In this document: positions 12,059 through 42,895 of the stretch, in pieces
How positions within the stretch are numbered: position 1 is the first letter of the stretch
Layout of the letters: each line of letters opens with the position of its first letter
Assembly (NCBI GenBank): GCA_903861125.1
Contig: CAIOTF010000014.1
Coordinates: 54,497-118,496 of the forward strand
Length of the DNA stretch: 64,000 nucleotides
Direction: 5' to 3'
Source: an uncultured Ignavibacteriota bacterium
GTDB taxonomy: Bacteria > Bacteroidota > Ignavibacteria > UBA10030 > UBA8401
Position numbers and translations under genes: made by a program
The notes under the pieces: model-generated
The model's database searches: none
What the model saw: the letters and a program-made list of their open reading frames with translations, nothing else
What the model was told of the DNA's origin: nothing

Positions 12059-12097
12059 AATGATTGTTGTTGAGGATAAATAAAAAAGTGAAAATAA

Positions 12098-16653: not shown

Positions 16654-16664
16654 GAAAGATCAGT

Positions 16665-17558
16665 CTAAAGACTAAACGTGATCGAAAATATATGGTTGGG
16701 GGAAAAGGCCCCGCTCATTGGAACGAAAGCGTAATCCAATCGAAGAATGCCGTATAGAACACCCGCACCTGTCGAAAATGATTTCGTCTCATATCCGGTT
16801 TGATATCCTCCGCGCAGCATGAACATTGAATCGTACACAGCCTCGGCTCCCAGTTGCAGATGAGTACCGTCGTCGTTCAATGTTTTTACGGCATCGCCGG
16901 CAGTGAGCAACAAAATTTCATTTGTAAGCGACAAGCCATAGGAAGCGCCAATCCGAACGGTTGTAGGAAGCACCGAACGTTCTGAACGTAAAATACCCAT
17001 CTTCCCGAGGTTAAGAAGGCTCATGCCGATATTAAGATTATCGAGTGCTTTATAGAAAATGCCGGCGTCAAATCCATAACCGCTTGCTTCATCAACGAAG
17101 ATCTTTTCATATAGTAATTTCCCGGTGAGACCGACCGTCAACTTATCCGATACAGAAAAAGCAGCGCCGATACCAAGGGCACCGTTGCGGGCTCCGAATG
17201 TTCCTTCGGCATCACCGGGGCGCAAGCGGACTTCAATGTTATTCACAGAAGTTGTATATGCAGAAATCCCGATTGAAACATCATTTCCCGGTATAGTTGC
17301 ACCGATATAATCAGCGGTTGTTTCGGCAAAACCTTGCCGATGGCTTATCATTAATTGTCGACCGGAGAAACGAATCGACGCAGGATTATAACCATACGAA
17401 GAGTGATCGTTAGTCACCGAAGTAAATGATTCACCCATTGCTACGGAACGAGCATCATTTCCTTGTTTGAGGAACGTCAAACCGGTATTGATACTTTGAG
17501 CGAAAGCAGAAAACGAGCAGAAGAGGAGAATAAATAATATGGTTCGTATCTTCGTCAT
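16665..17558 (-). CDS. FadL/PorV-like outer-membrane beta-barrel protein
   Basis: Signal peptide MTKIRTILFILLFCSFSAFAQ. N-terminal motif ARSVAMGESFTSVTNDHSSYGYNPASI is shared with ORFs 5723-6756 and 17555-18526. C-terminal aromatic residue. Confidence 0.5.
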   Translation of the reverse strand: MTKIRTILFILLFCSFSAFAQSINTGLTFLKQGNDARSVAMGESFTSVTNDHSSYGYNPASIRFSGRQLMISHRQGFAETTADYIGATIPGNDVSIGISAYTTSVNNIEVRLRPGDAEGTFGARNGALGIGAAFSVSDKLTVGLTGKLLYEKIFVDEASGYGFDAGIFYKALDNLNIGMSLLNLGKMGILRSERSVLPTTVRIGASYGLSLTNEILLLTAGDAVKTLNDDGTHLQLGAEAVYDSMFMLRGGYQTGYETKSFSTGAGVLYGILRLDYAFVPMSGAFSPNHIFSITFSL

Positions 17559-18526
17559 ATTCTTATCGAAAGAGAAATTACGTGAATGGAGAACAGACCG
17601 TACGGTTCAAGAATATAGGCATAATTCACAGAAGGTTTCCAATCCGTATAATCCGTCCGTACGGTAAATCCGAAAGAGGGGTGAGCTTGATCGGGTTTTT
17701 TCAGATCCCAACCGTCGATACCGGCACGAATGGTTATTGCTTCTATCGGGGTGACTTCGCCGCCAGCACGAATGATCAGAGTGGATCTGTTGCTACGTTC
17801 AAGTTCCGCTGAAAGCAATCCTCCAAAATCATCGAAGGCATAGGAGATACCCACTGCTTGCCGTTCCGGGAATTTATCGATAGTTGAATTTCCCAGCTGT
17901 CCGTAAAGATCGGAGGTATCCCATCGGTATTTTGCATTCACATCTTTATATGTACCGGCGATCATTAGTTTTGAGGTGATAGGATAGATGAAACCGAAAT
18001 CAAATCCGGCTCCGGTGGATGACAGTTTATCGAAAAGAGAGAAATAATATAATTTTGTTGTGAGTCCAATCGTCAATTTCCTGATCCGTAGTGCGAACGA
18101 CAGGGAGAATTGATTTTCGGAAACGGAATAGGTCTCAGTTTTGTAACCATCGTTATCCCGTCCGTCGATGTTTGACACTCCTGCATTAAGAATACCGAAT
18201 GAAATTCCGGCATTGGTATCGATCGGTTGAGAATAGTAGATCGAATTCAAACTTCGGTCGAGCGACAATATACCGTACGAAACAGACGCACTGTTGTTTT
18301 TCAGCAGGGCAATGGCGGCCGGATTATAGTAACCGGAATTCTCTCCTTCTTTTACAGCAGTTAAAGCATTTCCCATGCCCATTCCTCTTGCACCGAAACC
18401 CATGCGCGAAAATGCTCCGGGAGTTCCTGCAAGTTGTGCCGATGAGATTACGGTACACAACAATAATGCTGCCGATAGTATGGTTGCTCTATTGAATGAC
18501 AAGTATTTTTCCCCAGCGTGGTTCAT
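17555..18526 (-). CDS. FadL/PorV-like outer-membrane beta-barrel protein (paralog of the gene downstream)
   Basis: Signal peptide ...AALLLCTVISSAQ. Motif GARGMGMGNALTAVKEGENSGYYNPAAIA. The annotated start overlaps the upstream gene by 38 nt, so the true start may be later. Confidence 0.5.
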   Translation of the reverse strand: MNHAGEKYLSFNRATILSAALLLCTVISSAQLAGTPGAFSRMGFGARGMGMGNALTAVKEGENSGYYNPAAIALLKNNSASVSYGILSLDRSLNSIYYSQPIDTNAGISFGILNAGVSNIDGRDNDGYKTETYSVSENQFSLSFALRIRKLTIGLTTKLYYFSLFDKLSSTGAGFDFGFIYPITSKLMIAGTYKDVNAKYRWDTSDLYGQLGNSTIDKFPERQAVGISYAFDDFGGLLSAELERSNRSTLIIRAGGEVTPIEAITIRAGIDGWDLKKPDQAHPSFGFTVRTDYTDWKPSVNYAYILEPYGLFSIHVISLSIRI

Positions 18527-20051
18527 CGTTGTCTATTACGATCTGATAAAAATATACACCATTGGTAACCAAAGAGTTGTTCTCATTTCTTCCATCCCAT
18601 AGTTCGTCATGTTCGCGCGTAGATTCGCGTACTGCGTTCTGAACGACGGTCCGGACTAGATTCATTCCAAAATCAAAAATACGTAACGTTACTTTGGCAG
18701 CCGACGGTTTTCCTGTTGCATAATGGATGCGCACTGTCTCGTCGTCCGGTGCAAAAGGATTCGGATATGCATATGTTTCCGAGGTGGACGGAAGTTTTAA
18801 TGATGCGTGTAGGATCGTCCAATTGCTGCCGAACGGTGTATTGATGTTGTCGATCGTCTTCACTGCACCGTCAGCGCCGCCAAACCAGGCGGTGTCGCCC
18901 GATGATGCAGCCGCAAAGAATTTGCTCTGTGTATACCGTTGACGTGTAGACTTATCGTAGATCGATCCTGTCTGTATCCAGGATTGTCCGAAGTCGCTTG
19001 AACGGAAGATACCGTTGTCTGTCGGAACATACACAACATCTCCCTTGAAACCGAAATTGTGAGGGAATTCTCCGAGCAATGCTTGTTTCCACGAGATACC
19101 GCCATCTTCGGTAAAACTGACGCCGCGTTTTTCAGTATTGTCCGAAGCATTTATTGTCGCTGCCCAGATGATATTTTTTGTTGAAGTTTTTTGCTTGCCT
19201 ATGCCCACAATAAAATTGCCTGAAATGGGATTGAGTTGAGTTTGTTTGGTAAATTTCGTCCAGGACAATCCTCTATTTGTTGTTTTATTGATGCCGCCGG
19301 CCGATCCAATCCAAACCGTGGAATCGTTCTCCGCAAAAACAGAGAATGCCCTGTGGTTCAAATTGTTCTGCAATCCTAATGCTCCGCCGGAAGGAGAGAG
19401 ATCGAAGACGAGAGAATCATTCGGTGAGATGGATGTAAGATTATCCGGCGGCAGGATGACGCGTTTCCATGTTTTGCCGGTATCGTTTGTCACTCGCGCC
19501 ATGCCGGCGAACGAGCAGATATAAACGGAACTTCCTGCAATGGCGATATCGTACGTGATATTATTGATCGCCGTTGTAATTCCTAATGCGCGGATCGTGC
19601 TTTTCGAATTCCAGAATAACGTATCAACATTTTTTGTATCCAATGGCTGCGCGATTACTTTCCACGTCTCACCGCCGTCAGAAGAATACCGCAATCCGCT
19701 TCCTTCTGGTAAGGATTGGTTATCACGCACCACAGAGTGTGCGGTTGCAACCCACACATTTTTCCCTCTTACTGCCAATGCCGAAATATCTTCTTTGCCG
19801 AATTCCGGTGAATCATAATAATTTTTCCAGGTTCGTCCGCCGTCCGCCGATCTGCTCAAGCCTTTACCGGTGCCGAGCCAAATTGTATCATTACTGATGA
19901 CGATATCGGTAATGCTGTTGCCTGCCTGAAGCGTCGGTAATGAATTTGATTGTGAAAGCTTGAACGATTGTTCTGAAAGAATGTGTGGCTGTGCAATCGC
20001 AATTCTCAGACACGCAAATATATATAGCAAACGTGAAATAGGTTTTTTCAT
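18489..20051 (-). CDS. BNR/Asp-box repeat beta-propeller protein with a type A T9SS C-terminal sorting domain
   Basis: Signal peptide. At least 5 S-x-D-x-G-x-T/S-W repeats (SADGGRTWK, SSDGGETWK, TNDTGKTWK, TNRGLSWT, SSDFGQSWI). C-terminal YAYPNPFAPDDETVRIHY...GVYFYQIVIDNDEPRWGKILVIQ. Confidence 0.65.
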   Translation of the reverse strand: MKKPISRLLYIFACLRIAIAQPHILSEQSFKLSQSNSLPTLQAGNSITDIVISNDTIWLGTGKGLSRSADGGRTWKNYYDSPEFGKEDISALAVRGKNVWVATAHSVVRDNQSLPEGSGLRYSSDGGETWKVIAQPLDTKNVDTLFWNSKSTIRALGITTAINNITYDIAIAGSSVYICSFAGMARVTNDTGKTWKRVILPPDNLTSISPNDSLVFDLSPSGGALGLQNNLNHRAFSVFAENDSTVWIGSAGGINKTTNRGLSWTKFTKQTQLNPISGNFIVGIGKQKTSTKNIIWAATINASDNTEKRGVSFTEDGGISWKQALLGEFPHNFGFKGDVVYVPTDNGIFRSSDFGQSWIQTGSIYDKSTRQRYTQSKFFAAASSGDTAWFGGADGAVKTIDNINTPFGSNWTILHASLKLPSTSETYAYPNPFAPDDETVRIHYATGKPSAAKVTLRIFDFGMNLVRTVVQNAVRESTREHDELWDGRNENNSLVTNGVYFYQIVIDNDEPRWGKILVIQ

Positions 20052-20899
20052 TGAATGAATATCCTTTTGATGATCACATTGGAATATGCATTCGACTGAT
20101 CTTTTGCGGCAAAAATGAAATCCCGGTAAGTGTTCCGGGTGGTAGAATTGAATATTGGGACAATAATTGAATAGATTCCGTCACCTGCCAGACTATCACC
20201 GCTTGTCAATCCAAATTGGGGGAGCACCGTCTTCCCGCCGTCATCAGAAAGTGAAAATGTTCCTACAACGGATGAATCAGGACGTTGAGATGTCAATATA
20301 ACTGATACGATGTCGTTCAATCCCTGCTGATCGGACACTCCAAGCGAGATATAAATCAGATTCACGGAATCAGCACTGTTCGGAACCCGCACGGAATCCG
20401 GAGATGAAAGATTGAAAATGGTCGGTGCGTTGTTCGTCGATAAAATGATATTGAGAGGAATGTTGAATGTATTGCTTGAGAAGCCTTCTTTGTCAGTTGC
20501 AGTGAACTGGACATTATAGATACCGATGACATCTTTTGGTAATTTAAGATCGATCTGCGCATTATATTTGCCATCCGATGCATTTACATCAGGTGCTATG
20601 CCATTGTCATGCAATGTTCCCGAAGTGAACAATTTTCCCGAAGGCGAGATCACTCTGAACGATATCGTTGCAATATCAGCTAGACCGTTATCGTCGCCTG
20701 CATAGACGTATCCAAGCATTGAAATATCGATCGTAGTTCCTGTTGAGGATATTTTCCCAAAATCTACGATGGCTGGGGCGATACTTGCTTCGATGATTGA
20801 AGGAGGTATTTGTGTGTCAATAACAGCGTTATCACTCGGAGCTTTGCATCCGGCGATTGCTATAACGGCACACAATAATAGGCGAAGTGTTCGGTCCAT
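20048..20899 (-). CDS. Lipoprotein, probably with Ig-like folds; first gene of the long minus-strand operon
   Basis: Lipobox LLCAVIAIAGC after the N-terminal Met. Beta-rich, Ser/Thr/Asn-rich sequence. 4-nt ATGA overlap with the BNR gene. Confidence 0.5.
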   Translation of the reverse strand: MDRTLRLLLCAVIAIAGCKAPSDNAVIDTQIPPSIIEASIAPAIVDFGKISSTGTTIDISMLGYVYAGDDNGLADIATISFRVISPSGKLFTSGTLHDNGIAPDVNASDGKYNAQIDLKLPKDVIGIYNVQFTATDKEGFSSNTFNIPLNIILSTNNAPTIFNLSSPDSVRVPNSADSVNLIYISLGVSDQQGLNDIVSVILTSQRPDSSVVGTFSLSDDGGKTVLPQFGLTSGDSLAGDGIYSIIVPIFNSTTRNTYRDFIFAAKDQSNAYSNVIIKRIFIQ

Positions 20900-20901
20900 A
20901 T

Positions 20902-20932
20902 CAAAAAAAAACCGAGGACTTTATCCTCGGTT
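20902..20932 (-). terminator. Intrinsic terminator for the upstream minus-strand operon that ends with the M50 protease
   Basis: On the minus strand the sequence reads ccgagga-uaaag-uccucgg followed by U9. The U-tract ends 3 nt before the ATG of the lipoprotein gene. Confidence 0.5.
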
Positions 20933-21070
20933 AGAATAAAGCAATCTGCAATTAAAAAGTTGTTCGCAAAAATTTGTATCGGAATCTAATGTATCGAACT
21001 TTTCTATGGCAGACTGCAATTGTTATTGAATTCTTTAACAATAATAATAAAATTTTGTTTGAGAGTCAAA

Positions 21071-22003
21071 CTAAAAGGCAATATTGAACGGTGATGGCGT
21101 AAAACTAATGACTAAAATTCCAAATGTAAGCCAACCAATAAGACGACGGTTTGCATCTAATTCAGTTTCATCTTCAACCGGAGGATGATATAATTTTACC
21201 ACGAACAGCAGTATCAATGTCCAAAAGACCCATCCGGACCAACCGATAGTAGTTTCAACACCAAGCAGCGGTAATAATCCGGCCGCACCAAGAAGAAAAA
21301 TAAAGCCAAATGAGACATTTGCGACCATGGTATGATTTCTTCCAAACATCGTGTAGGAAAGATGTCCGCCGTCCAGTTGTCCGATGGGAATCAAATTCAT
21401 TGCGGTAACAAAAAGCCCGAACCATCCTGTGCAAAGGAAGGGATAATGATACATCTCGCTCATCGGCGGTATGAAATCTGTAGCACCGTTTGTCAGTATA
21501 AGTCCGAAAAAATTATACAACAGGGAATGTCCAAAAGTCAATCCGATTCCTTGCTGTGTCTGAGTGAAATAATCGGGATGAATCTTAAGAATGAATTCTT
21601 TACCAGGAAGGTGCGTGAATCCGTATATCAATATTGCGATCGTTGCAAAAAATCCGGCGATCGGACCGGCAACGCCGATGTCGAACATCACCTTCTTGGA
21701 GGGGATAGGAGACTGCGTTTTAATTATTGCACCGAATGTACCGAAATTCATAAAACCTGGCACCGATGGAGTAGGGATGAAGAACGGCAGCGTTGCATCA
21801 ACACCGTGATAACGCGCGGCAAAATAATGTCCGAACTCGTGACAGGTGAGAATGAAAAGGATTGAAAACGAATACGGCAGACCGTACGCAAAATTGGAAA
21901 GTTCAAACGGATCGATATTGAGCCAAGCCACACCGGCCACCGTTGTAGTAAAGAAAGTTGCAATGAACAGAGAAAGATGGAGAAGAATTTTTCTGATAGT
22001 CAT
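21071..22003 (-). CDS. Site-2-protease-like integral-membrane zinc metallopeptidase (M50 family)
   Basis: The HExxH motif (HEFGHYFAARYHG) lies in a transmembrane segment and the protein is polytopic, as in RseP/SpoIVFB-type proteases. Confidence 0.6.
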   Translation of the reverse strand: MTIRKILLHLSLFIATFFTTTVAGVAWLNIDPFELSNFAYGLPYSFSILFILTCHEFGHYFAARYHGVDATLPFFIPTPSVPGFMNFGTFGAIIKTQSPIPSKKVMFDIGVAGPIAGFFATIAILIYGFTHLPGKEFILKIHPDYFTQTQQGIGLTFGHSLLYNFFGLILTNGATDFIPPMSEMYHYPFLCTGWFGLFVTAMNLIPIGQLDGGHLSYTMFGRNHTMVANVSFGFIFLLGAAGLLPLLGVETTIGWSGWVFWTLILLFVVKLYHPPVEDETELDANRRLIGWLTFGILVISFTPSPFNIAF

Positions 22004-22006
22004 AAT

Positions 22007-22822
22007 TTAAAAATCAATATTGAATCCAACGCCGGAATATGTATCACTGCGGTCATGATATTCCCCGTGGATGCTGTTGCCGGAATAATAGATGAAGAAA
22101 ACTTTTGTCCCTCGTCCGCTCCAGTTGCCCATCTTTGCTCCCGCTTGAAACTCGTGCCGTGGACGAAGTCCAGTCACCGTAAACTGATAGGCAGCATATC
22201 CATGAACCGAATCGAAAAGAGATTGATGATATTCACCTCCGAAATATTCGGCGAATTTCGGCAATGTAGTCGGATCGACATGCCAAAGATAGAGTGTGCC
22301 GAAATAGATTCGAAGAGAACTGACAGGTTCATAACTGACGGCAAGATCAAAAAATTCCCTGCTGTACACCCTTGGATGTATGCCATCTTTCCATAATCCT
22401 TGTGTACCGTCATAATGTCCGTCAACAAAGTGTGCGCTGATGTGGCTCAGTCGCAATCGTGATGAGAAGAGACCGCAATCCAGAGAATCAGCGTAATTGA
22501 TATTGAAACCGAAGAGATAATCCACAGCATCTACGGGAAAATGAAAATCCTTTTCTCCGCGAAGCAAGGTGAATGTAAAGAAATCTGATCCGATTGTAAG
22601 ATGCTTTCGGCTCTCCTGGAAAGTGTATTGAAATAAATCAACGGAATTGCCGATATCCAGTCTCAACCGGTTATCGTTTGCATGCCAGATCAGTCCCACG
22701 CGCGGTTCGAATGTTTGTGCTGTCAACGGTCTGAAAAGAAGAGGTCCGGATGCAAATGAGAAACCAGATTCCGCTGCAGATGTCAGTGAGACAAGAGAAA
22801 GAAGAAGAAAAATATGTTTCAT
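22007..22822 (-). CDS. Small outer-membrane beta-barrel protein (MipA/OmpV-like); hypothetical
   Basis: Signal peptide MKHIFLLLSLVSLTSA and the alternating pattern ending in ...GVGFNIDF with a C-terminal Phe. The start overlaps the stop of the upstream PHP gene by 1 nt (TAATG). Confidence 0.45.
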   Translation of the reverse strand: MKHIFLLLSLVSLTSAAESGFSFASGPLLFRPLTAQTFEPRVGLIWHANDNRLRLDIGNSVDLFQYTFQESRKHLTIGSDFFTFTLLRGEKDFHFPVDAVDYLFGFNINYADSLDCGLFSSRLRLSHISAHFVDGHYDGTQGLWKDGIHPRVYSREFFDLAVSYEPVSSLRIYFGTLYLWHVDPTTLPKFAEYFGGEYHQSLFDSVHGYAAYQFTVTGLRPRHEFQAGAKMGNWSGRGTKVFFIYYSGNSIHGEYHDRSDTYSGVGFNIDF

Positions 22823-24432
22823 TACGGTTGAATCCAAATCGGGTTTGTATAACAGAATCCGTCACGGTCTATTCCGTGTCCATGCTGAGTGTATGCCTCT
22901 GCTCTAATATACGAAAAGAATTCCGCTTGATGCCAATCGCTTATCTGATGAATGGAATACGGATTCCTGAACTGCCTGATCTCAAAAAGTATGCGTTCAC
23001 CTTTGCCGATGATCCCTATAAAAATTTTGATGTGAGTGAATGTTCCGAATTCATCCGTTGTTTCACCGTGAAATTTTACAACAAATTTTTTTCCACTCAC
23101 TGTTTCTCCAATCCTGCCTACGTCTGGCGAATCCGTTTCCATTTCGATCGTCAGCAAAGGACCATTGGTAATAACAGTTCTCCCTTTTCCCATTGCATCA
23201 ATCACATCAGATTCCGTTAAGGCCGAAACAAGCGCAGCCGTCTTCATTTTGCCAAAGAGCTGAGCTTCATTTTCTCTGAACATGACCATCGGAATTCCGA
23301 TCTGAACAAAGCGGTTAAAGTTTCCATGGGCATCGTTTCCGGCAAGGATGAATTTTTTTTCTCCCCGGTTGAGCATCCATTTCCAAACGTCCATGCCTCG
23401 GTAAAAACCGTCCGAACGCGATCCGTTTAAGATTTGAATACCTGAGAGTTCTTTTTCACTCATATCTTTCAAGGACCATTCGTCCCGCTTCAGCAATACT
23501 TTCTGCAGGGACGAAACATCCTCCGTCGGATGAGCAGCATATGCTACGACATTATTTTCTTTTTGTGAGAGAATTTCACCAATGGTAAACTCGCTTTCGG
23601 TGGTGAACCATTTTTCAGCTCCATCACCTGAGCCATGAAAGAAACGGCGGTTACCGAAGAGAAGAAAATGCACATTATAGTTCTCCGAATTTGTGCAGGA
23701 GACTTCTTCTCCGCGAATTACGGCGAAATCTTTTTCTCTCGCGTTTACCTGGTCGATCTCATTCTGGTATTCTTTCCATTTTGGGATTTCCGGATCGTTT
23801 ATAAGATAATTATCGGCTGAATCATCAAGATCATAAGAATGATCGGTAACTCCCACGAACGACAATCCCATAGAGCGGCACAAATGGGGTGCGGCAGCGA
23901 CCGGAGAACCGAATTCAACCTGATCCTCGGTATACGTAGAATGTGTATGTGTATCTCCGTAGATCCAGCCGTTTACCGACGGTAAATATGTCTTAGAACG
24001 ATAGAATTTCAGAGGTGGTTTAGAAGTGAATCGATGGTTGTTATTGTGGGTAATTTTTATTTTTCCTTTTTGTTTCGTGACAATCTCAACATCAACATGC
24101 ATCATGCCATACTTTGAAGCCAAATTACCCGTAAAGTTCAGGTCCAGGATCTTCCACCAGAAGTGAGATCTGATCATTAATGCAGGCGAAAATTCAAATG
24201 TGTGTGTATACTCCTGCCTCGCATTGTGTGAGATGGTTACGGTGATGCTCAACAACTGAATCGGATAGATATCGGCATCTTTGATTAGGATGAGTACCGG
24301 ATACGGTTTGTCCGGGTCTAAACGGTGAGGACCGTCGGCAATAATCTCTGGTTCGGAATTATTGTACAGACTGAAGAAATATTTGAAACGATAATGAGTC
24401 TCAGCATATAAGAAGAAAGGAAGAAGGAACAT
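22822..24432 (-). CDS. PHP-domain metal-dependent phosphoesterase-like protein with an N-terminal domain of unknown function
   Basis: GDTHTHSTYTED...VGVTDHS and later HP/NDAHG histidine clusters are typical of the PHP (polymerase/histidinol-phosphatase) fold. Confidence 0.5.
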   Translation of the reverse strand: MFLLPFFLYAETHYRFKYFFSLYNNSEPEIIADGPHRLDPDKPYPVLILIKDADIYPIQLLSITVTISHNARQEYTHTFEFSPALMIRSHFWWKILDLNFTGNLASKYGMMHVDVEIVTKQKGKIKITHNNNHRFTSKPPLKFYRSKTYLPSVNGWIYGDTHTHSTYTEDQVEFGSPVAAAPHLCRSMGLSFVGVTDHSYDLDDSADNYLINDPEIPKWKEYQNEIDQVNAREKDFAVIRGEEVSCTNSENYNVHFLLFGNRRFFHGSGDGAEKWFTTESEFTIGEILSQKENNVVAYAAHPTEDVSSLQKVLLKRDEWSLKDMSEKELSGIQILNGSRSDGFYRGMDVWKWMLNRGEKKFILAGNDAHGNFNRFVQIGIPMVMFRENEAQLFGKMKTAALVSALTESDVIDAMGKGRTVITNGPLLTIEMETDSPDVGRIGETVSGKKFVVKFHGETTDEFGTFTHIKIFIGIIGKGERILFEIRQFRNPYSIHQISDWHQAEFFSYIRAEAYTQHGHGIDRDGFCYTNPIWIQP

Positions 24433-25514
24433 TAGGATATCGCCGTTAAGAGATGATCAATGCGCTGACGTAGCACTGAATAATCATTGTGAAATTGTGT
24501 AAATCCGGAATATGAATTGAATTGCTCCATCGCACGCGTCAGTGAAAATTCTTTTTGTGATTCAAAATAGCAGATCTTTTGATCCTTCAGCCGCTGAGCC
24601 AAATATATCTGCTCAGTTTGCTGCGGGGTCGGAACAAAAACAGCATTGGCACCGAGATGTGACAGATCCATGATGGTGCTGTATCCCGGCCGTGAAATGA
24701 TGATATGTGATGCAGCAATTGCTTCCGACAATTCACCGGAAGTAAGGGAACCTATTAATGTGAGAGTGTCCGAGAGTTTCATCTTTAAGAATCTCTCCGG
24801 AGTGCCACGTACAACCAGCGCACGCAGTGTAGTCGTTTTTAGCTGATCCGTAATTAATGTTTCAAATAATGTTCGCTGAGGTTCCGGTCCGGAAAGAATC
24901 ACAAGAACATCGAGCTCTTTTTTTGTTGCGGCAATCCGCTTCAGACGTGAAAGGGGACCGATGAAAAAAGAATTTTGTGGAAGGACGGAATCGTGCGAAA
25001 GTTCTCCGCTGAGATTGTTCTCAGATTCGATATCAGGAATCCATACTTCGCTAAATGGCCTCATCAAATGTTTGTTTGCGTAATCAACAATCCCTTGTCC
25101 CCAGCGTAAATACGCGGAGAGTAGGATCCTGAGCTGATGCACCACGTATACTGATGGGACATTTACAGAATATGCACCCCAGCGGTTATCCGAAATAACG
25201 GCATCAATGCCATGGTCATTCACTATCTTTTCCAGTAATCGATGTTCATCGCCGATTCCTTTGAATAGTTTCGGCAGTTGACGGAACATCGTCCACGCCA
25301 TATTTGCGTTCACTGGATATTGTATCGCATACCCGGGATACCGGATATGCTCAAGGTCGGGGAATTCTTTTTTCAGCAATTCTGCCGGACGATTGTCGGC
25401 CGCGATTATGACCTCAGCCCCTTTCGCAATCAGTTCTTGGATGATCGGGATACACCTGGTAGCATGGCCAAGTCCCCAATCAAGCGGAGCGATCAGAATC
25501 CGTTTCTTCCTCAT
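24432..25514 (-). CDS. GT-B glycosyltransferase (GT1/GT28-like, MJ1255-type)
   Basis: N-terminal RILIAPLDWGLGHATRCIPIIQELIAKGAEVIIA is the nucleotide-sugar-binding Gly-rich loop of MurG/UGT-like enzymes. Confidence 0.55.
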   Translation of the reverse strand: MRKKRILIAPLDWGLGHATRCIPIIQELIAKGAEVIIAADNRPAELLKKEFPDLEHIRYPGYAIQYPVNANMAWTMFRQLPKLFKGIGDEHRLLEKIVNDHGIDAVISDNRWGAYSVNVPSVYVVHQLRILLSAYLRWGQGIVDYANKHLMRPFSEVWIPDIESENNLSGELSHDSVLPQNSFFIGPLSRLKRIAATKKELDVLVILSGPEPQRTLFETLITDQLKTTTLRALVVRGTPERFLKMKLSDTLTLIGSLTSGELSEAIAASHIIISRPGYSTIMDLSHLGANAVFVPTPQQTEQIYLAQRLKDQKICYFESQKEFSLTRAMEQFNSYSGFTQFHNDYSVLRQRIDHLLTAIS

Positions 25515-26164
25515 CGTATTGCTCCAAACGAGTATCCGCGCCGTTTGATTTCCGGTATCACACTATCAAGGATGTCAACGATCCGGCGTTGAGTGAGATC
25601 ATTATCATGATATACAAGGATTGCGCCATCCGAAAGATTTTTTAGCGAAACGCGTACGACCCGGTCATGTGTCCATTGCCGGAAATCGCCGGTCAGGCAG
25701 CTCCACATCACAAGAATGCAGCCAAGTTCACGTGCCGCTAAGATGGTCTTTCGGGAAAAAAATCCAAATGGCGGACGAAACAAACGTACATTTTGGTGGA
25801 TTATATCCGCGATGATTTTTTTCGTTTGGAGTATCTCTTCCTTAGTTTTTGTCTCGGATAATGCAAGCGATCGGGAATGATTGAATGCATGGATTCCGAT
25901 GGAATGGCCCTCATCTGCAATACGGCGGACAATCTCCTCGCGTCCCTGTATGTTTTTCCCGGAAAGAAAAAACGTTGCACGGACTTCATGTTTTTTCAAA
26001 AGATCCAGTACAGCTGGTGTTGCAGCAGTATGCGGTCCGTCATCGAACGTAAGGTACACTTTTTTGCCGGGCATTCGCCAGAGCAAAGAAGGAAAGAGTA
26101 TCTGATGTATAATGCCGGTATGCGAGATCATGCTGATTCTTTTTTTAACGTGCGCTCTTTCCAT
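25511..26164 (-). CDS. Polysaccharide deacetylase (CE4, NodB homology domain), cytoplasmic and NodB-sized
   Basis: Canonical motifs: YLTFDDGP (motif 1), HSIGIHAFNHS (H-x-x-x-H, motif 2), and VLVMWS/LVYHDND. 217 aa with no signal peptide. Confidence 0.8.
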   Translation of the reverse strand: MERAHVKKRISMISHTGIIHQILFPSLLWRMPGKKVYLTFDDGPHTAATPAVLDLLKKHEVRATFFLSGKNIQGREEIVRRIADEGHSIGIHAFNHSRSLALSETKTKEEILQTKKIIADIIHQNVRLFRPPFGFFSRKTILAARELGCILVMWSCLTGDFRQWTHDRVVRVSLKNLSDGAILVYHDNDLTQRRIVDILDSVIPEIKRRGYSFGAIR

Positions 26165-27279
26165 TCAAAAGAAAAAAAATATCCGCCGATAGTTGAAATA
26201 AGAACAAAGGGAATATGGATGATCGCCGTAACAATAAAATATTTCATCGCATCAGAGGTTTTTGTTATGGTTGCAAACCGATGCATAATCAGATAATCGG
26301 TCAAAAATTTTCCCGTCACGACGATCCAGGGGATGATATTCCATTCAACCAGTGTCAGTGGTAACGCTATCGTCAACGCAACGTACATAATAAATGTGCA
26401 GATCATAAAGAACATCATATACGGCGGATAATAAGCGGTCTGTCCGACCCAACGCATGCGCTGATGAAAAACTGCTTTCCATGTCATAACCGGATGCGTT
26501 GAAATAGCTGCATCATCATCGAAGGCAAACCGCGCCTTCCATTTTCCTGACGCTGCGATCTTTTGTGCGAGTAATGAATCATCCCCCGTATTAATGTGGG
26601 TCAACGCATCAAATCCATCTGCTTCATCGAATGCTTCAATACTGAATGCCATATTGCTTCCGTTGCTGACCAAAACCCGCTTCATCCCTATGGCGCCGGC
26701 AGCAATTGCCGTGTAGGAAATAAAATCCAGGAATTGAATTCCCCAAAACGGCGACGAGATACGGTCATCCTTTCCGTACTTTGTCAGTCCTGTAACGACT
26801 CCGACATTCTCTTCAAAATACGAATTGATCGCTGAAATCCAGCCGGGAGAGGCGATGCAATCTGCATCGGTGGTAATGATGATCTCGCTCGCAGAATGCT
26901 GGATCCCCAATGTCATCGCACGGATCTTCGGGGAACGTATCGTTGAGGTGATATCGGATTTCAAGAGTGTTATTGTTACGGTGGATCGTTGTGCAATTTC
27001 TTTTACTATTTCAGGGGTTCTGTCCGTTGATTGATCGTCGATAACGATGATCGCAAGTTTTTCTTTGGGATAATCCTGAATGAGCAGAGAGTTCAGGATG
27101 CGTTCAATATAATTCTCCTCGTTACGGGCCGGAATGATGACGGTAACGGAATGTTGAACCGTGTTTTTTCCTTTTGTCAATCGGGCGAGACCGCGAAAGA
27201 AGAATAGAATTTGGCGTACATACACTGCCAGCAGAAAAATCAAAAGAACGGAGGTATATTCAATGAATATCCTCATCAT
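26128..27279 (-). CDS. Membrane-embedded processive GT2 glycosyltransferase (NodC/PgaC/chitin-synthase-like)
   Basis: N-terminal TM segment, then VTVIIPARNEENYIERILNSLLIQDYP, a DD motif and QRMRW (the Q-x-x-R-W of processive beta-glycan synthases), with 3-4 C-terminal TM helices. Confidence 0.7.
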   Translation of the reverse strand: MMRIFIEYTSVLLIFLLAVYVRQILFFFRGLARLTKGKNTVQHSVTVIIPARNEENYIERILNSLLIQDYPKEKLAIIVIDDQSTDRTPEIVKEIAQRSTVTITLLKSDITSTIRSPKIRAMTLGIQHSASEIIITTDADCIASPGWISAINSYFEENVGVVTGLTKYGKDDRISSPFWGIQFLDFISYTAIAAGAIGMKRVLVSNGSNMAFSIEAFDEADGFDALTHINTGDDSLLAQKIAASGKWKARFAFDDDAAISTHPVMTWKAVFHQRMRWVGQTAYYPPYMMFFMICTFIMYVALTIALPLTLVEWNIIPWIVVTGKFLTDYLIMHRFATITKTSDAMKYFIVTAIIHIPFVLISTIGGYFFSFEWKERTLKKESA

Positions 27280-28220
27280 TTTCTTTTCAATTTTAAAACA
27301 AGTATCGCACCAATTGCCGTAGGAACAATGACATTTGCGAACGACATGATGATGGATGCATTGAATGCTACTGCCGCACTTGCGCCGACCTTCTCAAAAA
27401 AGAAAACCGCGGCACTTTCGCGGACGCCAAGATCGCCGAACGATATCGGCAGTATCACAGCCTTCACAAAAAAAACCGAGGCGGCACAGATCATCGTATC
27501 GGAGAGCGAAACATTCCCGAAAGCGGAAGCTAAAAAATAAAATTCGAACAAGATAACAGCATACAGCATTGAAGTTAAAACAAATAACACTCTCGCGTTG
27601 GAATTGTGAAATTCATCTTCAATCACCCGGAACATTTCATAAAACCGGTGTGCTCGTATTCTTTCCGGAAGCAATTGAAGAAAAATTTTCACCTTCTCAG
27701 GAAAAAGATACAGGATAGCGATTAAACTCAAGATAATAATGATGAAAATGGTGTAGTAAGGATTCCAATATTCAATAAAATAGTTTGAAACGAACATCAG
27801 CAAACCAACACCGCCAATAATAAATGTTAAAGCTGCCCAGTATAATTTGTCTACGATAGTTATGCCGATGATTTTTGCTTTATGTACATTTGGGTGACTC
27901 GCAATCCTTCCTGCAAATTCCCCCAATTGAGCAGGCGTGAAGAATCCTGCCATAAACCCTACAAACAATGATGTGAATACTTCATCGTTGGAAATATCCT
28001 TTGAAACAAGGCGGAGCAAATATCTCCAACGGTAAAAATGAACGATCAACTGAATTACCGCCAAAGCAAATCCAGCAGACAGGTAGAACGTATTTGCATG
28101 CTGGAATGATTGAACTACTGCACGAACATCAATGTAGTAGATCAAACCACCAAGCAGTATCGTTGAGACAAGAATTTTTGCAGCCGTTAATACGGCTGGA
28201 TGCGAAAAAAATGCTTTCAC
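27276..28220 (-). CDS. Flippase-like polytopic membrane protein (UPF0104 / lysyl-PG-synthase TM-domain family)
   Basis: About 8 predicted TM helices and no catalytic motifs. Such proteins are often found between GT2 genes. Confidence 0.5.
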   Translation of the reverse strand: MKAFFSHPAVLTAAKILVSTILLGGLIYYIDVRAVVQSFQHANTFYLSAGFALAVIQLIVHFYRWRYLLRLVSKDISNDEVFTSLFVGFMAGFFTPAQLGEFAGRIASHPNVHKAKIIGITIVDKLYWAALTFIIGGVGLLMFVSNYFIEYWNPYYTIFIIIILSLIAILYLFPEKVKIFLQLLPERIRAHRFYEMFRVIEDEFHNSNARVLFVLTSMLYAVILFEFYFLASAFGNVSLSDTMICAASVFFVKAVILPISFGDLGVRESAAVFFFEKVGASAAVAFNASIIMSFANVIVPTAIGAILVLKLKRK

Positions 28221-29320
28221 GTGTTGGCGGATCCTTTCCAGTCAAATTTCATAAGAACGCCAAGCGGAGCGATGCAAAAAGAATACAAGACCAGAAGAGT
28301 TTCATCTGCAGCGAATTCGGGGACGGAAAATTCTTCGCCTAATAATTTCTTGCCGTGTGAAATAAAAGCAGCATCCGCATTGAATTTAACCATCAAAGCA
28401 ATCAATGAGAAGAGTGGTGTAAAAAAAAATCCTGCGAACACAGCGAGGTGGAACAAATGGATCAGCGAATACATCAATTGAATTTTTTTCGGATAAAAAA
28501 TGCTTGCAGAGACATGCCGTGTGCGCTGGCTGACAAACTGTTTGAATGAAGCAGGTGGTACAGTACGGATATAGCTTTCAAGTGACGTCATATACCGGAT
28601 TTTCCACAGGGTCTTGCGCTGTACGAGCTGCAGGAACAAATCGTCATCTCCACTAATGGAATGTTTGATCTTTTCAAACCCGCCGACCTCTTCAAAAACT
28701 TCCCTGCGATATGCAAAATTTCTGCCTGTACACATAAATGCATTTTGCAGCCCGATCGCTGAAGCTGCAATCAACGAATTTTTAAATTCTTCGTACCGCA
28801 GGAAACTATTCGGCGCGGCAGGCATATACGGACTGTATCCGGCAACCACGCCAACATCGTTGGTAAAATTTTCTGAAATTTCATTCAACCAGTTTTTCGG
28901 TACAAGACAGTCAGCATCTGTGAATGCAAAAATGTTAAATTTGGATTGTGCGATGGCTGTGCGAAGTGCATTTTTTTTATGAGGCATGTCGCTGCTGTTC
29001 GATGTAATATTTATCGTCCGAACGTTACCATGCCGATGGGCGAATAATTCTGCTATTGATGCCGTCGAATCTGTCGATCGGTCGTTAACAACAAGAATTT
29101 CAAACTGTTCTGAAGGATATTTCTGCTCTACAAGCGATTGCAGCAGGGAGGAAATATTTTTTTCCTCATTCCTGGCCGCAACAATAACGGAAATTCCTTG
29201 ATGGCCATTGGTATGTTTCGGACTTGAAAGTCTTGTTAAGCCGAGCCACAATATGTAATGAATGCCAACATATACAGCACAGAGTGGGAGAAGGACCCAG
29301 AAATCAAATAGTTCAACCAT
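28217..29320 (-). CDS. Membrane-associated GT2 glycosyltransferase
   Basis: ISVIVAARNEEKNISSLLQSLVEQKYPSEQFEILVVNDRSTDST and a DxD region, flanked by TM segments. It is the first gene of the minus-strand operon. Confidence 0.7.
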   Translation of the reverse strand: MVELFDFWVLLPLCAVYVGIHYILWLGLTRLSSPKHTNGHQGISVIVAARNEEKNISSLLQSLVEQKYPSEQFEILVVNDRSTDSTASIAELFAHRHGNVRTINITSNSSDMPHKKNALRTAIAQSKFNIFAFTDADCLVPKNWLNEISENFTNDVGVVAGYSPYMPAAPNSFLRYEEFKNSLIAASAIGLQNAFMCTGRNFAYRREVFEEVGGFEKIKHSISGDDDLFLQLVQRKTLWKIRYMTSLESYIRTVPPASFKQFVSQRTRHVSASIFYPKKIQLMYSLIHLFHLAVFAGFFFTPLFSLIALMVKFNADAAFISHGKKLLGEEFSVPEFAADETLLVLYSFCIAPLGVLMKFDWKGSANT

Positions 29321-29433
29321 GAAAGAAAAATAGCCAAAGATTTGATGCTATTCAATACAATAGAAAATGTTTTGCAGAAAGCAAATAACAGGTAATTAGC
29401 GTTTGCTTTCTCGTTTTCTTCAATTATATTCAT

Positions 29434-30075
29434 TTGTCTAAAAAAGGAAAGAGAACGATGCGCCAATTAGTGATAGGAATTGCTGGAGGAACAGGGTCCG
29501 GAAAGACTTCAGTAACAAATAAAATTCTTGAACGATTGCATTTTACCGAGAATGTTGTTGTTATACAGCATGACTCCTATTATCGTGATCTCACGTCGTA
29601 TGGCGGACTGACACCCGATCATATCAATTTCGATCATCCGGATTCGCTCGAAACATCACTGCTGACAGAACACATAAAAAATCTGCGAAAAGGAAATGCT
29701 ATCGAGCAGCCGTTGTATAATTTTACAACGCATTCACGGATGAAAGAAACCCGTCATCTTGAACCGAAAGACATCATTATCATCGAAGGAATTTTGATCT
29801 TTGCATCCCTGGAACTGCGTAATCTGATGGATATAAAGATCTTTATTGACACCGATGCAGATGAACGCCTGCTGCGCCGTCTGAAACGTGATATCATAGA
29901 AAGGGGCCGTTCAATAGATTCTGTCATGAATCAATATGTTGCCACCGTGAAGCCGATGCATCTGGAATTTGTTGAACCAAGCAAGCGGTATGCCGATGTG
30001 ATCATACCGTCGGGAAGCGAGAATCTTGTCGGTATTGATATGGTAGCCGTGAAGATCGGAACCATGCTGAAATAA
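29434..30075 (+). CDS. udk: Uridine kinase
   Basis: P-loop VIGIAGGTGSGKTSV and VIQHDSYYRD. The true start may be the internal Met at about 29458. Confidence 0.85.
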   Translation: MSKKGKRTMRQLVIGIAGGTGSGKTSVTNKILERLHFTENVVVIQHDSYYRDLTSYGGLTPDHINFDHPDSLETSLLTEHIKNLRKGNAIEQPLYNFTTHSRMKETRHLEPKDIIIIEGILIFASLELRNLMDIKIFIDTDADERLLRRLKRDIIERGRSIDSVMNQYVATVKPMHLEFVEPSKRYADVIIPSGSENLVGIDMVAVKIGTMLK

Positions 30076-30218
30076 GGACTTTCCGGCCTGAATTTATGCA
30101 CATATTAATAATTATACATGCGGATTAAGAAAAGCTAACGTCCCAAAATTTTCTTTTTACTTTTCTAAAATTACTATATCTTCATCACGCGAATTCAATT
30201 GAAAGTTAACAACTGAGA

Positions 30219-31499
30219 ATGACTAGTAGAAGCAAACTATCGTATACGGGTCCTGCAGTACATCAGTCGTATAAAAAAACGACTCTCGCCAACGGCATTC
30301 GTGTTCTCAGCGAAGAAATTTCCTCAGTAAAATCTGCATCAATCGGCATTTGGATCGACACAGGCTCGTGTAATGAAACAGAACTCACCAATGGAATATC
30401 ACATTTCATCGAACACATGATGTTCAAAGGAACCGATAAACGTAATTACCAGCAGATCGCGCAAAGTCTGGAATCGGTCGGTGGTTACATGAACGCATTC
30501 ACGACCAAAGAGCATACCTGCTATTACGCCCGTGTGCTTGATGAATATGTGGAGAAGGCGGTTGATGTACTTTCAGATATGGTGCTGCATTCAATATTCC
30601 CCGTTAGGGAAATGGAGAAAGAAAAGACCGTAATTCTCGAAGAGATAAAACGTTCCGAGGATGACCCGGATGATCTGGTGCAGGAATATTTTGAGAAACA
30701 TTTGTTCGGCGGACATCCGTTTGCACGCCCTATCATCGGATCAGCGGAAAACGTTTCGCGGTTTACACGCGACAATCTCTTTGATTACACAAAGAAATTC
30801 TATACGAACAAAAATATCATTCTCGCAGCGGCCGGAAATATCACGCACGATCAAATGGTAAAACTCGCTGAAAAGTATCTGACGCAGAAGAGGACCGCCG
30901 GAGAAAAATTCAAAACATTTTCGGCAGTAAAACCGAAGCTGAATTCGCAGGAATATTCCAAGCCGATCCAGCAGGCGCATCTCTGCACCGGCACGATTGC
31001 CTTCAGCGTACACGATAAAATGCGTTATCCTGCGTTGGTGATGAATTCAGTTCTTGGCGATGGAATGAGTTCGCGTTTGTTCCAGCAGATTCGCGAGAAA
31101 CATGGATTGGCGTACAGCGTTTATTCGTTCCTGGGACTAATGAAGGATACCGGTTCATTCGGCATTTATCTCGGCACAGATAAAAAATCCGTTCAAAAAG
31201 CTCTTGATCTTTCCTACAAAGAACTGATAAAATTGAAAACAAAACTAATGGCAGCCTCTGAACTACAGAGGGCAAAGGCGCAGTTAAAGGGAAGTATGCT
31301 CTTAAGCCTGGAGAGCACATCGAACCGTATGATGCGTCTTGCCAATGGGGAATTATATTATGGAGAATACACTCCGCTTGATTCGATTGTAAAAAATATT
31401 GATTCCGTCACGATCGATGACGTTCAAGCCGTATCACATCAACTGTTCGATATTGAGAAATTTACCACCGTAATACTAAATCCGGAAATGAAAAACTAA
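30219..31499 (+). CDS. M16 family zinc peptidase (insulinase-like)
   Basis: Inverted zincin motif H-x-x-E-H (GISHFIEHMMFKGT) and a downstream Glu. Confidence 0.8.
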   Translation: MTSRSKLSYTGPAVHQSYKKTTLANGIRVLSEEISSVKSASIGIWIDTGSCNETELTNGISHFIEHMMFKGTDKRNYQQIAQSLESVGGYMNAFTTKEHTCYYARVLDEYVEKAVDVLSDMVLHSIFPVREMEKEKTVILEEIKRSEDDPDDLVQEYFEKHLFGGHPFARPIIGSAENVSRFTRDNLFDYTKKFYTNKNIILAAAGNITHDQMVKLAEKYLTQKRTAGEKFKTFSAVKPKLNSQEYSKPIQQAHLCTGTIAFSVHDKMRYPALVMNSVLGDGMSSRLFQQIREKHGLAYSVYSFLGLMKDTGSFGIYLGTDKKSVQKALDLSYKELIKLKTKLMAASELQRAKAQLKGSMLLSLESTSNRMMRLANGELYYGEYTPLDSIVKNIDSVTIDDVQAVSHQLFDIEKFTTVILNPEMKN

Positions 31500-42623: not shown

Positions 42624-42761
42624 TATTGTCCCTATGATCGTATGCAGAGTATAACGTAAAGATTAAAAAATATCAATCATGAAAAATAAATAAATCTGCC
42701 TACTTGACAAATGAACTCTATTTGCTATATTATATACAGTTCTTTTACAGCAATTATTGCA

Positions 42762-42873
42762 TTCATCAAGAGTGGACGAGGGACTGACCTGAAGACTCCA
42801 CAGCAACCGGCGATTCACACAGCGTCGTGCAGGTGCTAATTTCAGATTCTCTGCAAAGAGAACAACGATGAAC
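42762..42873 (+). promoter_or_regulatory. SAM-I (S-box) riboswitch aptamer
   Basis: ttcatcaagagtggacgagggactgacctgaagactccacagcaaccgg...gtgctaatttcagattctctgcaaagagaacaacgatgaa matches the S-box consensus (P1 uucauc/gaugaa, the AGAGNGGNGGAGGGACUGGCCCNAUGAAGCC core, the GCAACC pseudoknot element). It lies upstream of metY-metX. Confidence 0.8.
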
Positions 42874-42895
42874 TAAAAGTCTGAGCTTTTATATA

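Follow-up and report, generated by a model that had tools for sequence, protein, structure and literature searches.

The window analysed here is a stretch of 64,000 nt from an uncultured Ignavibacteriota bacterium (positions 54,497 to 118,496 of contig CAIOTF010000014.1, assembly GCA_903861125.1), and its subject is a run of eight consecutive open reading frames on the minus strand, from 29320 to 21071, which were assigned to families with Pfam and NCBIfam. In gene order, these code for a family-2 glycosyltransferase (GT2; designated GT2-A), a UPF0104 flippase-like protein, a second GT2 (GT2-B, with the motif QRMRW), a CE4 deacetylase, a glycosyltransferase of the GT-B fold, a PHP metallohydrolase, a DUF1207 beta-barrel and an M50 protease; all the families named in an initial annotation of this DNA were recovered for the eight genes. 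Neighbouring genes are joined by overlaps of 4 nt or 1 nt or, from the barrel to the M50 gene, by a gap of 3 nt (GTGA, ATGA, ATGA, ATGA, TAATG, TAATG and the 3-nt gap at the seven successive junctions), which bears out the translational coupling proposed in that annotation. A strong intrinsic terminator at 20910..20932, on the same strand, closes the operon (10-bp stem with 5 G-C pairs, T9 tail); it was the top-ranked terminator-like site in a scan of positions 17000-30500, and no internal terminator appeared between the PHP gene and the barrel and protease genes. At the other end, a divergent intergenic region of 113 nt (29321..29433), the presumed promoter region of the minus-strand unit, separates the GT2-A gene from a uridine kinase gene on the plus strand (PF00485, 152 bits); reading of this spacer revealed no convincing promoter consensus.

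The eight genes form one real, tightly packed operon, and look co-transcribed. Its extent had been given as 22007-29320, which leaves out the M50 gene (21071-22003), so that the true unit is 21071-29320. The full eight-gene order was found again in four loci (L003, L005, L007 and L085) of a comparison set of 86 loci from genomes and metagenomes, with proteins only 45-65% identical, and the arrangement is therefore not due to chance. Two gene starts were also revised: the CE4 gene more likely starts at 26131, yielding a product of 206 aa and an ATGA overlap, than at 26164 (217 aa), and the barrel gene starts with the ATG at 22822 (271 aa) and not with the TTG at 22837; gene callers had picked these same starts (26131 and 22822) in identical metagenome contigs. 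In a 57%-identical relative (L085/L086:4500-7500), an IS240-type transposase gene and a gene for an N6/N4 DNA methyltransferase-endonuclease lie between the uridine kinase and GT2-A genes; the promoter-proximal spacer therefore tolerates insertions.

GT2-B (26128..27279; 383 aa; PF00535, 88.6 bits) is a membrane-embedded enzyme with a minimal cellulose-synthase-like fold. Its AlphaFold model (pLDDT 90.4) comprises a GT-A domain with one N-terminal and three C-terminal membrane helices (predicted at residues 2-31, 286-308, 316-338 and 342-368), and a Foldseek search with this model retrieved PcManGT first (E 6e-17), followed by BcsA and hyaluronan synthase, with TM-scores of 0.62-0.71. Since basic residues sit right after the first transmembrane (TM) helix, the catalytic domain probably faces the cytoplasm, following the positive-inside rule. 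Residues D81, D82, D138, D140, G232, D234, S235, Q273, R274, R276 and W277 are invariant among 15 homologues with 41-83% identity, and they make up the motif blocks DD81-82, DAD138-140, GDDS (G232, D234, S235) and QRMRW (residues 273-277). GT2-B contains all the features of membrane-embedded "synthase-like" GT2 enzymes (D, DxD, a third acidic motif, QxxRW and interface/TM helices), and GT2-A contains all of them except the final Trp. The latter (28217..29320; 367 aa; PF00535, 86 bits; PF13641, 85; PF13506, 47.6) is a membrane-anchored paralogue, 34% identical to GT2-B, with motifs DDxSxDxT, DAD and GDDD, and with QRTRH in place of QxxRW. This W-to-H change (residues 264-269) is kept among close orthologues and the GT2-A clade is consistently Q-R-x-R-H; the missing acceptor-stacking Trp suggests that GT2-A may use another acceptor, or may have a non-catalytic or priming role.

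QxxRW had initially been taken as a sign that GT2-B is processive, but does not show this. This motif is also carried by non-processive lipid glycosyltransferases, such as the GT21 ceramide glucosyltransferase and HpnI, and the top model matches of the window enzymes include HpnB, HpnI and PF13506 (the GT21 ceramide glucosyltransferase family), the latter with 55 bits for GT2-B and 48 bits for GT2-A. The hopanoid-associated HpnB and HpnI were the best or near-best NCBIfam models (71.2 and 58.4 bits, respectively, for GT2-B; 57.3 and 57.5 for GT2-A), with both enzymes far under the cut-offs of 310 bits for HpnI (TIGR03472) and 379 for HpnB (TIGR03469); likewise, the best NCBIfam matches of GT2-A (MftF, 76 bits; PgaC, 62; HpnI, 57.5) are all far under their cut-offs. 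In a profile search against the sequences in PDB, only the alignment to ceramide glucosyltransferase spans the QxxRW region (residues 39-335 of the GT2-B query).

The CE4 deacetylase (25511..26131; 206 aa; NodB-homology domain PF01522, 127.3 bits, cut-off 23.1) has intact catalytic motifs TFDDGP, HxxxH and RPP. Conservation was of at least 90% among 23 orthologues for residues T28, F29, D30, D31, G32, P33, H81, H85, R119, P120 and P121, as well as for W143, D149, H175 and D176, and the orthologues all share an N-terminal LFPSxxW segment. Neither the window protein nor 22 orthologues showed a signal peptide, a TM segment or a hydrophobic N-terminus, in agreement with the initial description of a cytoplasmic, NodB-sized enzyme. 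Also as first described, CE4 is nearer to NodB (30% identity and 100 bits in blastp to Sinorhizobium meliloti NodB) than to PgaB and IcaB, which gave nothing significant. Nevertheless, the NodB model of NCBIfam (TIGR04243; 119.3 bits, cut-off 240) scored below PdaB (146 bits), PgdA (133) and PdaA (131), all of them under their cut-offs, and generic plasmid-borne deacetylases gave 32-37% identity and 108-133 bits in blastp. By these scores, CE4 is at least as close to peptidoglycan-type deacetylases as to NodB; CE4 is, however, not secreted, and we do not consider it an orthologue of a peptidoglycan deacetylase.

GT2-B and CE4 had been labelled a NodB/NodC-like pair, a name that had to be dropped. 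The operon proteins were compared with NCBIfam equivalog models, whose cut-offs are 550 bits for NodC (TIGR04242), 240 for NodB, 422 for PgaC/IcaA (TIGR03937), 529 for ArnC (PRK10714) and 480 for GpgS (NF053787), and directly by blastp with NodB and NodC from S. meliloti pSymA, with PgaB, PgaC, PgaD, ArnC, ArnD, BcsA and YbhN from Escherichia coli, and with staphylococcal IcaA and IcaB. The scores for the NodC model were 32.0 bits for GT2-B and 21.4 bits for GT2-A; by blastp, identity to S. meliloti NodC was 28.6% over 126 N-terminal residues for GT2-B (37.7 bits) and 23% over 249 residues for GT2-A (45.4 bits), in the N-terminal, nucleotide-binding half. The pair thus falls short of the NodC and NodB cut-offs by wide margins, and searches with Pfam and NCBIfam revealed neither a NodA-type acyltransferase nor a NodIJ-type ABC exporter among the eight operon proteins and six flanking ones. 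Scores for the PgaC/IcaA model were 62.4 bits for GT2-A and 51.6 for GT2-B, and for the CelA model 16.5 bits. In blastp, GT2-A gave 69 bits to E. coli PgaC and 49 to IcaA, and GT2-B 50 and 57, respectively, the match of GT2-B to IcaA being a weak, full-length similarity (23% over residues 27-360). By comparison, blastp of IcaA against PgaC yields 316 bits, and of NodC against PgaC 74 bits. The window enzymes are as distant from NodC, PgaC, IcaA and BcsA as these families are from one another; they therefore constitute a branch of their own within the synthase-like GT2 superfamily, and NodC is not their closest relative. These model scores and the comparisons with the authentic proteins rule out an identity with NodBC and with the Pga/Ica systems for poly-N-acetylglucosamine (PNAG). 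The same Pfam and NCBIfam searches found no PgaA porin, PgaD/IcaD, PilZ, Wza/Wzc or secreted deacetylase in the operon. As a caution, therefore, a QxxRW motif and an adjacent CE4 gene are insufficient for naming a locus NodBC-like or PNAG-like.

Other families fared no better. With the ArnC model, GT2-B reached 28.6 bits and GT2-A 18.1, and blastp to E. coli ArnC gave 40 and 29 bits over approximately 130-170 N-terminal residues; the window GT2 enzymes are thus not of the dolichyl- or undecaprenyl-phosphate type (ArnC/DPM1). No operon protein reached an E value of 0.01 with the GpgS model, which gave 23.3 bits to a GT4 from the neighbouring operon (13129-14160). A link to hopanoids (HpnI/HpnK/HpnJ) was weighed because HpnB and HpnI were the top models and because relatives carry radical-SAM (S-adenosylmethionine) genes, and was rejected: the scores are far under the cut-offs, the radical-SAM proteins from the relatives fit none of the hopanoid models beyond noise level (HpnH, 42 bits versus a cut-off of 225), and there are no hopanoid genes near the window operon. 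The logic of low-molecular-weight thiol synthesis (MshA/MshB, BshA/BshB), in which a deacetylase acts after a glycosyltransferase, was likewise rejected, given that the glycosyltransferase is membrane-embedded and its conserved partner is a flippase-family protein.

This partner (27276..28220; 314 aa) is a polytopic membrane protein from the UPF0104/LPG_synthase_TM family, that of the MprF flippase domain, with multiple hydrophobic segments and a full-length match to PF03706 (96.7 bits); its score for the TIGR00374 "flippase-like domain" was 49.4 bits, with a cut-off of 43.2. Its gene overlaps that of GT2-A by GTGA and that of GT2-B by ATGA. The family assignment rests on profile hidden Markov models, because E. 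coli YbhN, which also belongs to PF03706, shows no blastp similarity to it at E <= 1; from these profiles we predict a lipid flippase or scramblase. The gene after CE4 codes for a soluble glycosyltransferase with a GT-B fold (24432..25514; 360 aa), of the GT28-C/Glyco_trans_1_3 type (MJ1255/VC2487-like; PF04101, 43.4 bits; PF13528, 34.2), with 49 bits for TIGR00661, under the cut-off of this model. It contains no TM segment, and a sequence search retrieved no solved homologue.

The PHP-family metal-dependent hydrolase (22822..24432; 536 aa) has three domains, an N-terminal beta-sandwich, the PHP barrel and a C-terminal beta-sandwich, and belongs to a family with about 1,800 homologues. It has no Pfam match and gave 79.7 bits with the CehA/McbA metallohydrolase model (NF038032, cut-off 80). 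As in CE4 and the GT-B enzyme, neither a signal peptide nor a TM segment was found. Its N-terminal peptide, P-x-F-L-Y-A-E-T-H-Y-R-F-K-Y-F-F-S (within the first 24 residues, 24361-24432), is nearly invariant down to 44% identity; this aromatic peptide, for which the structure model has very low confidence (pLDDT below 50), may be a membrane-interface or partner-binding segment. The DUF1207-family outer-membrane beta-barrel (22007..22822; 271 aa; signal peptide MKHIFLLLSLVSLTSAAES), whose gene overlaps the PHP gene by TAATG, matches PF06727 with 23.4 bits (cut-off 22) only over the C-terminal half of the profile. It contains the invariant motifs RxRxSHISAHxVDGH (residues 122-136) and HGEY (252-255), with an H-x-S spacing that we take to be reminiscent of the His/Ser from the lipid A deacylase PagL; profile searches gave no support for this, and a search with the barrel profile against PDB gave no match. 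The barrel family comprises approximately 1,600 proteins; the best 120 homologues are from Ignavibacteria-type genomes or unclassified Bacteroidota and are annotated only as DUF1207, nearly all with PF06727. The sole mention of DUF1207 that we found in the literature is of a predicted beta-barrel from Chlamydia. Finally, the M50 intramembrane metalloprotease (21071..22003; 310 aa; site-2 protease family, PF02163, 66 bits, cut-off 27.2), whose gene starts 3 nt past the stop codon of the barrel gene, lacks a PDZ domain and contains the conserved motifs HEFGH (residues 55-59) and NxxPxxxxDGGH (203-214, with LDGGH); with 18.8 bits versus a cut-off of 147.6, it does not qualify as an RseP equivalog.

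What is conserved across phyla is a set of flippase-like, GT2 and CE4 genes, in part with a further GT2. Co-occurrence was counted in the 35 loci that extend for 5 kb or more to either side: ten of them have CE4, always directly downstream of a GT2-B-type gene (10/10), and nine of these ten also contain a flippase-like gene. GT2-B and CE4 are therefore a real conserved unit, and their conserved third partner is a lipid-flippase-family protein. The PHP gene was found only at loci with at least two GT2 genes (5/5). The core order of flippase-like, GT2-B, CE4 and GT2 genes occurs in Melioribacteraceae, Ignavibacteriales, Rhodothermales and unclassified Bacteroidota, including the cultured Rubrivirga sp. 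IMCC43871 (Rhodothermales; NZ_CP177355.1, around 3.50 Mb), and no cultured carrier of the full eight-gene operon was identified; the GT2 clade as such contains more than 1,000 homologues. Close relatives (L004:8013-10029 and L005) have an extra, third GT2 gene between the CE4 and GT-B genes, which appears to have been lost in the lineage of the window, and in L004 there are also about 2 kb inserted between the GT2-B and CE4 genes.

Radical-SAM enzymes replace CE4 in several loci, as in L083 (11230-12267). In other lineages (L012, L014, L015, L020 and L009; e.g., L014:8684-16554), between one and three enzymes of the radical-SAM or radical-SAM/SPASM type accompany pairs of GT2-A and GT2-B homologues; these loci are from a metagenome-assembled genome (MAG) labelled Cytophagia, candidate division KSB1, unclassified MAGs and some Ignavibacteria. 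The radical-SAM proteins (e.g., L013:7866-8906 and 12953-13930) are nearest to the uncharacterised PTO1314 family, under its cut-off. Besides the PHP hydrolase known from the window operon, these loci encode a Wzi-like outer-membrane protein, a DUF3108 protein or a methyltransferase. This set of radical-SAM, Wzi-like and GT2 genes matches no known system. Conversely, the pair DUF1207-M50 and the genes that follow it were found beside these GT2 genes only in Ignavibacteria-type genomes. The cultured Rosettibacter firmus (Melioribacteraceae; L087, GCA_036860695.1, 8874-19457) has a reduced locus with one GT2 gene, a third paralogue with 32-33% identity to both window GT2 enzymes, followed by DUF1207 and M50 and then by genes for a choice-of-anchor X protein, a BNR protein, two outer-membrane proteins, a FemAB-like acyltransferase, a GT4 and a GT9; no flippase-like, CE4 or PHP gene was found in this locus, and a similar reduced locus occurs in L078. 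The DUF1207 barrel and the M50 protease are part of an envelope backbone that is conserved across the class.

The combination of a glycosyltransferase, a deacetylase and a UPF0104 protein is known from two characterised synthase-deacetylase-flippase (SDF) systems, whose products are glucosamine-bearing membrane lipids. In hexSDF from Clostridioides difficile, a system for aminohexosyl-hexosyl-diradylglycerol synthesis, a glycosyltransferase places an N-acetylhexosamine (HexNAc) on a glycolipid; HexD, a polysaccharide deacetylase, is needed for the amino form, and in its absence the acetylated intermediate builds up; HexF contains an MprF-like flippase domain and HexS is annotated as similar to monogalactosyldiacylglycerol synthases (PMC10128005). 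In gpgSDF from Pseudomonas aeruginosa, GpgS makes N-acetylglucosaminyl-phosphatidylglycerol, which is deacetylated by the cytoplasmic GpgD to glucosaminyl-phosphatidylglycerol; GpgF is a UPF0104 protein (COG0392) and predicted flippase, and the three gpg genes suffice in E. coli (PMC12713373). Additionally, a conserved archaeal neighbourhood of UPF0104, polysaccharide deacetylase and glycosyltransferase genes was flagged in 2015 (PMC5898192). Comparative genomics has also shown UPF0104 domains fused to GT-A or GT-B domains.

The window operon likewise combines a glycosyltransferase, a deacetylase and a stand-alone PF03706 protein, and with hexSDF it shares a CE4-type deacetylase and a stand-alone MprF-flippase-domain protein, a likeness drawn from families and not from the Hex sequences. 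The annotation of HexS corresponds to a GT28-type family, and the window operon also has an enzyme of this kind, the GT28-C-type GT-B transferase; however, the window CE4 is paired with a membrane-embedded GT2 and not with a soluble GT-B enzyme. Further differences to hexSDF are the presence of three glycosyltransferases, a PHP hydrolase, an outer-membrane barrel and an M50 protease, a didermic host, and no adjacent two-component regulator. gpgSDF is from a Gram-negative bacterium and, as we predict for the window operon, has all of its chemistry on the cytoplasmic face and UPF0104 as predicted flippase, but its synthase GpgS is a soluble member of GT4, and its deacetylase GpgD is of the COG3233 type and not a Pfam CE4. 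Compared with both SDF systems, the membrane GT2 synthase, the three glycosyltransferases, the conserved three-domain PHP hydrolase and the coupled barrel and M50 protease are new; the set had been described as an uncharacterised combination of parts, which holds for these additions and not for the core logic of glycosyltransferase, deacetylase and UPF0104.

Further systems share some features with the window operon. As in NodC/NodB, a QxxRW membrane GT2 adjoins a cytoplasmic CE4 of roughly 210 aa, but the conserved partner in the window operon is a lipid-flippase-family protein and both NodA and NodIJ are missing. PgaABCD and IcaADBC also comprise a GT2 synthase, a CE4-family deacetylase and an outer-membrane component, although PgaB and IcaB are exported enzymes without significant similarity to the window CE4. 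The GT21 enzymes and HpnI share with the window GT2 enzymes PF13506, the D/DxD/D/QxxRW motifs and an arrangement of one N-terminal and several C-terminal membrane helices; in the hopanoid pathway, HpnI adds N-acetylglucosamine (GlcNAc) to a lipid that is then deacetylated by HpnK, which is not a CE4-family enzyme. Lastly, in the Arn pathway a lipid carrier receives a sugar from a GT2, and a CE4-superfamily deacylation at the cytoplasmic face is followed by flipping; unlike in the window operon, ArnE/F are small proteins resembling the small multidrug resistance family instead of UPF0104 proteins, and the window has no ArnT-like GT-C.

Our favoured reading, to which we give a probability of about 0.5, is that the operon would be a GT2-based, multi-sugar variant of the SDF module that makes a de-N-acetylated membrane glycolipid. 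An SDF-type reading is indicated because CE4 directly follows a GT2-B-type gene and because nine of the ten CE4 loci carry a flippase-like gene; a lipid is favoured over a PNAG-like polymer because a polymer extruded during its synthesis is out of reach for a cytoplasmic deacetylase and because the operon holds no polymer-export parts. The initial proposal of a HexNAc-based glycoconjugate or glycolipid, partly de-N-acetylated and exported, is plausible as a general idea, though not as a NodBC or biofilm-polysaccharide system. The genes present, their catalytic motifs, the topology, the tight coupling and the conservation of the module are observations; the donor, the acceptor, the succession of steps and the flipping are proposed as follows. 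GT2-B, with its four helices, would add a HexNAc, presumably from UDP-HexNAc, to a membrane lipid or glycolipid primer on the cytoplasmic face, and the cytoplasmic CE4 would then strip the N-acetyl group to leave a free cationic amine. GT2-A and the soluble GT-B enzyme may add or prime more sugars, for a headgroup of probably two or three, and the UPF0104 protein would carry the finished lipid to the periplasmic leaflet of the inner membrane. The PHP metallohydrolase might act on an intermediate or carrier by hydrolysing an ester bond, probably that of a phosphoester.

Several observations weigh against this glycolipid reading. None of the lipid-synthesis genes looked for (acyltransferase, CDP-alcohol transferase, serine palmitoyltransferase) is present in the operon, and the PHP enzyme, the barrel and the protease are left unexplained by a lipid model. 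GT2-B keeps QxxRW, and processive polymer synthases fit its fold to about the same degree as enzymes that are not processive. The resemblance to ceramide glucosyltransferase is weak: when searched alone, as a single sequence or as a profile, the C-terminal half of GT2-B has no significant match among PDB sequences. Flippase activity is unproven for stand-alone UPF0104 proteins, and HexF and GpgF are dispensable for lipid production (PMC10128005, PMC12713373). In the KSB1 and unclassified MAGs, moreover, these GT2 genes are paired with genes for Wzi-like capsule-anchor proteins (PF14052, 66 bits) and not with CE4, which hints at a surface polysaccharide in these distant relatives. Literature searches on the polar lipids of Ignavibacteria or Melioribacter gave nothing useful.

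The Wzi-like neighbours also fit an alternative that we consider unlikely, in which one or both GT2 enzymes would be processive and make a GlcNAc-rich oligo- or polysaccharide (chitin-, PNAG- or NodC-like), partly de-N-acetylated by CE4, that reaches the surface through the DUF1207 protein as anchor or exit. This agrees with the full set of D, DxD, GDD and QxxRW motifs in GT2-B, with its cellulose-synthase-like fold and the presence of BcsA and hyaluronan synthase among its top structural matches, with its weak full-length similarity to IcaA and with the translational coupling of an outer-membrane barrel. Yet the scores for PgaC/IcaA (52-62 bits versus 422), NodC (21-32 versus 550) and CelA (16.5) are those of enzymes no nearer to NodC, PgaC or IcaA than these families are to each other; the GT2-B model has only four TM helices; PgaD/IcaD, PgaA, PilZ, Wza/Wzc, an ABC exporter and NodA are all missing from the operon; CE4 is cytoplasmic, while PgaB and IcaB act outside the cytoplasm; and the co-conserved partner belongs to a lipid-flippase family. 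The sequence of a GT2, a CE4-type deacylase and a flippase is also the exact logic of Arn, and the product could be an Arn-like donor, or one as for the lipid A amino sugars from Francisella and Bordetella: a HexNAc on undecaprenyl phosphate, deacetylated, flipped and used in the periplasm on lipopolysaccharide (LPS) or secreted proteins, with the PHP enzyme recycling the carrier phosphate. The phosphoesterase in the operon would then have a role, and the adjacent operon encodes GT9 and GT4 enzymes of the LPS-core type along with outer-membrane proteins that resemble those of type IX secretion. However, we deem such a donor very unlikely: the GT2 enzymes are not of the ArnC/DPM1 type, with 28.6 bits versus 529 for ArnC and only N-terminal matches in blastp, and possess the QxxRW and interface-helix architecture that ArnC/DPM1 enzymes lack; the similarity of CE4 to ArnD is negligible (26 bits); and neither the operon nor its conserved neighbours include a GT-C (ArnT-like) transferase.

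Independently of the chemistry, the unit could be composite, with a variable cassette from GT2-A to PHP inserted upstream of an unrelated class-wide envelope block, so that the barrel and the protease would lie outside the pathway. R. firmus, and similarly L078, keeps the GT2, DUF1207, M50 and onward genes without flippase-like, CE4 or PHP genes, and DUF1207 and M50 lie beside these GT2 genes only in Ignavibacteria-type genomes, the core module occurring without them in Rhodothermales and others. Conversely, the barrel and protease genes are coupled to the PHP gene (TAATG and the 3-nt gap) with no internal terminator, and a GT2 of the family still adjoins DUF1207-M50 in the reduced loci, pointing to some functional tie of a GT2 product to the barrel and the protease. 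We regard a composite origin as a serious possibility, if one that we are inclined to doubt.

A second tightly packed operon, with nine genes, lies directly after the terminator (11573-20899, minus strand), and its gene order is kept across Ignavibacteria-type genomes. It opens with genes for a lipoprotein of the "choice-of-anchor X" type, a BNR/sortilin-like protein that carries a C-terminal domain for type IX secretion and two PorV/PorP/FadL-like outer-membrane proteins; these are followed by a GT4, a CE4-like protein of 507 aa (PF01522, 22.6 bits, narrowly missing the cut-off), a further GT4, an enzyme similar to GT9 heptosyltransferases and a thioredoxin/DsbD-like protein. Its possible role is to link components of type IX secretion with a glycan resembling the LPS core. 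Elsewhere in the window, a SAM riboswitch (RF00162, 64.5 bits; 42760-42874, plus strand) precedes genes for a pyridoxal phosphate-dependent enzyme of the O-acetylhomoserine sulfhydrylase type and an alpha/beta-hydrolase (homoserine O-acetyltransferase-like), and represents ordinary control of methionine biosynthesis.

Taken further, the glycolipid reading leads to a speculative proposal, which we think has only a small chance of being right as a whole: the operon and its numerous relatives would represent an uncharacterised envelope pathway of Ignavibacteria and other lineages of the Fibrobacterota-Chlorobiota-Bacteroidota group, in which a multi-sugar, partly de-N-acetylated and hence cationic glycolipid would be built on GT2 synthases with a new PHP phosphoester step, flipped by UPF0104, sent to the outer membrane, and bound or remodelled there by the DUF1207 barrel, as a second major class of outer-membrane glycolipid beside LPS. 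Remodelling by the barrel is suggested because its invariant S-H-x-S-x-H and H-G-E motifs recall outer-membrane lipid hydrolases. If the operon does make an amino-sugar glycolipid, the synthesis of such lipids with a glycosyltransferase, a deacetylase and UPF0104 would not be confined to C. difficile and P. aeruginosa. It would instead be a widespread means of tuning membrane charge, extending through GT2 synthases to the largely uncultured Ignavibacteria and to Rhodothermales, and it would provide the first functional handles on three families without a characterised member: this clade of GT2 enzymes, the three-domain PHP hydrolase and the DUF1207 barrels from Ignavibacteria.

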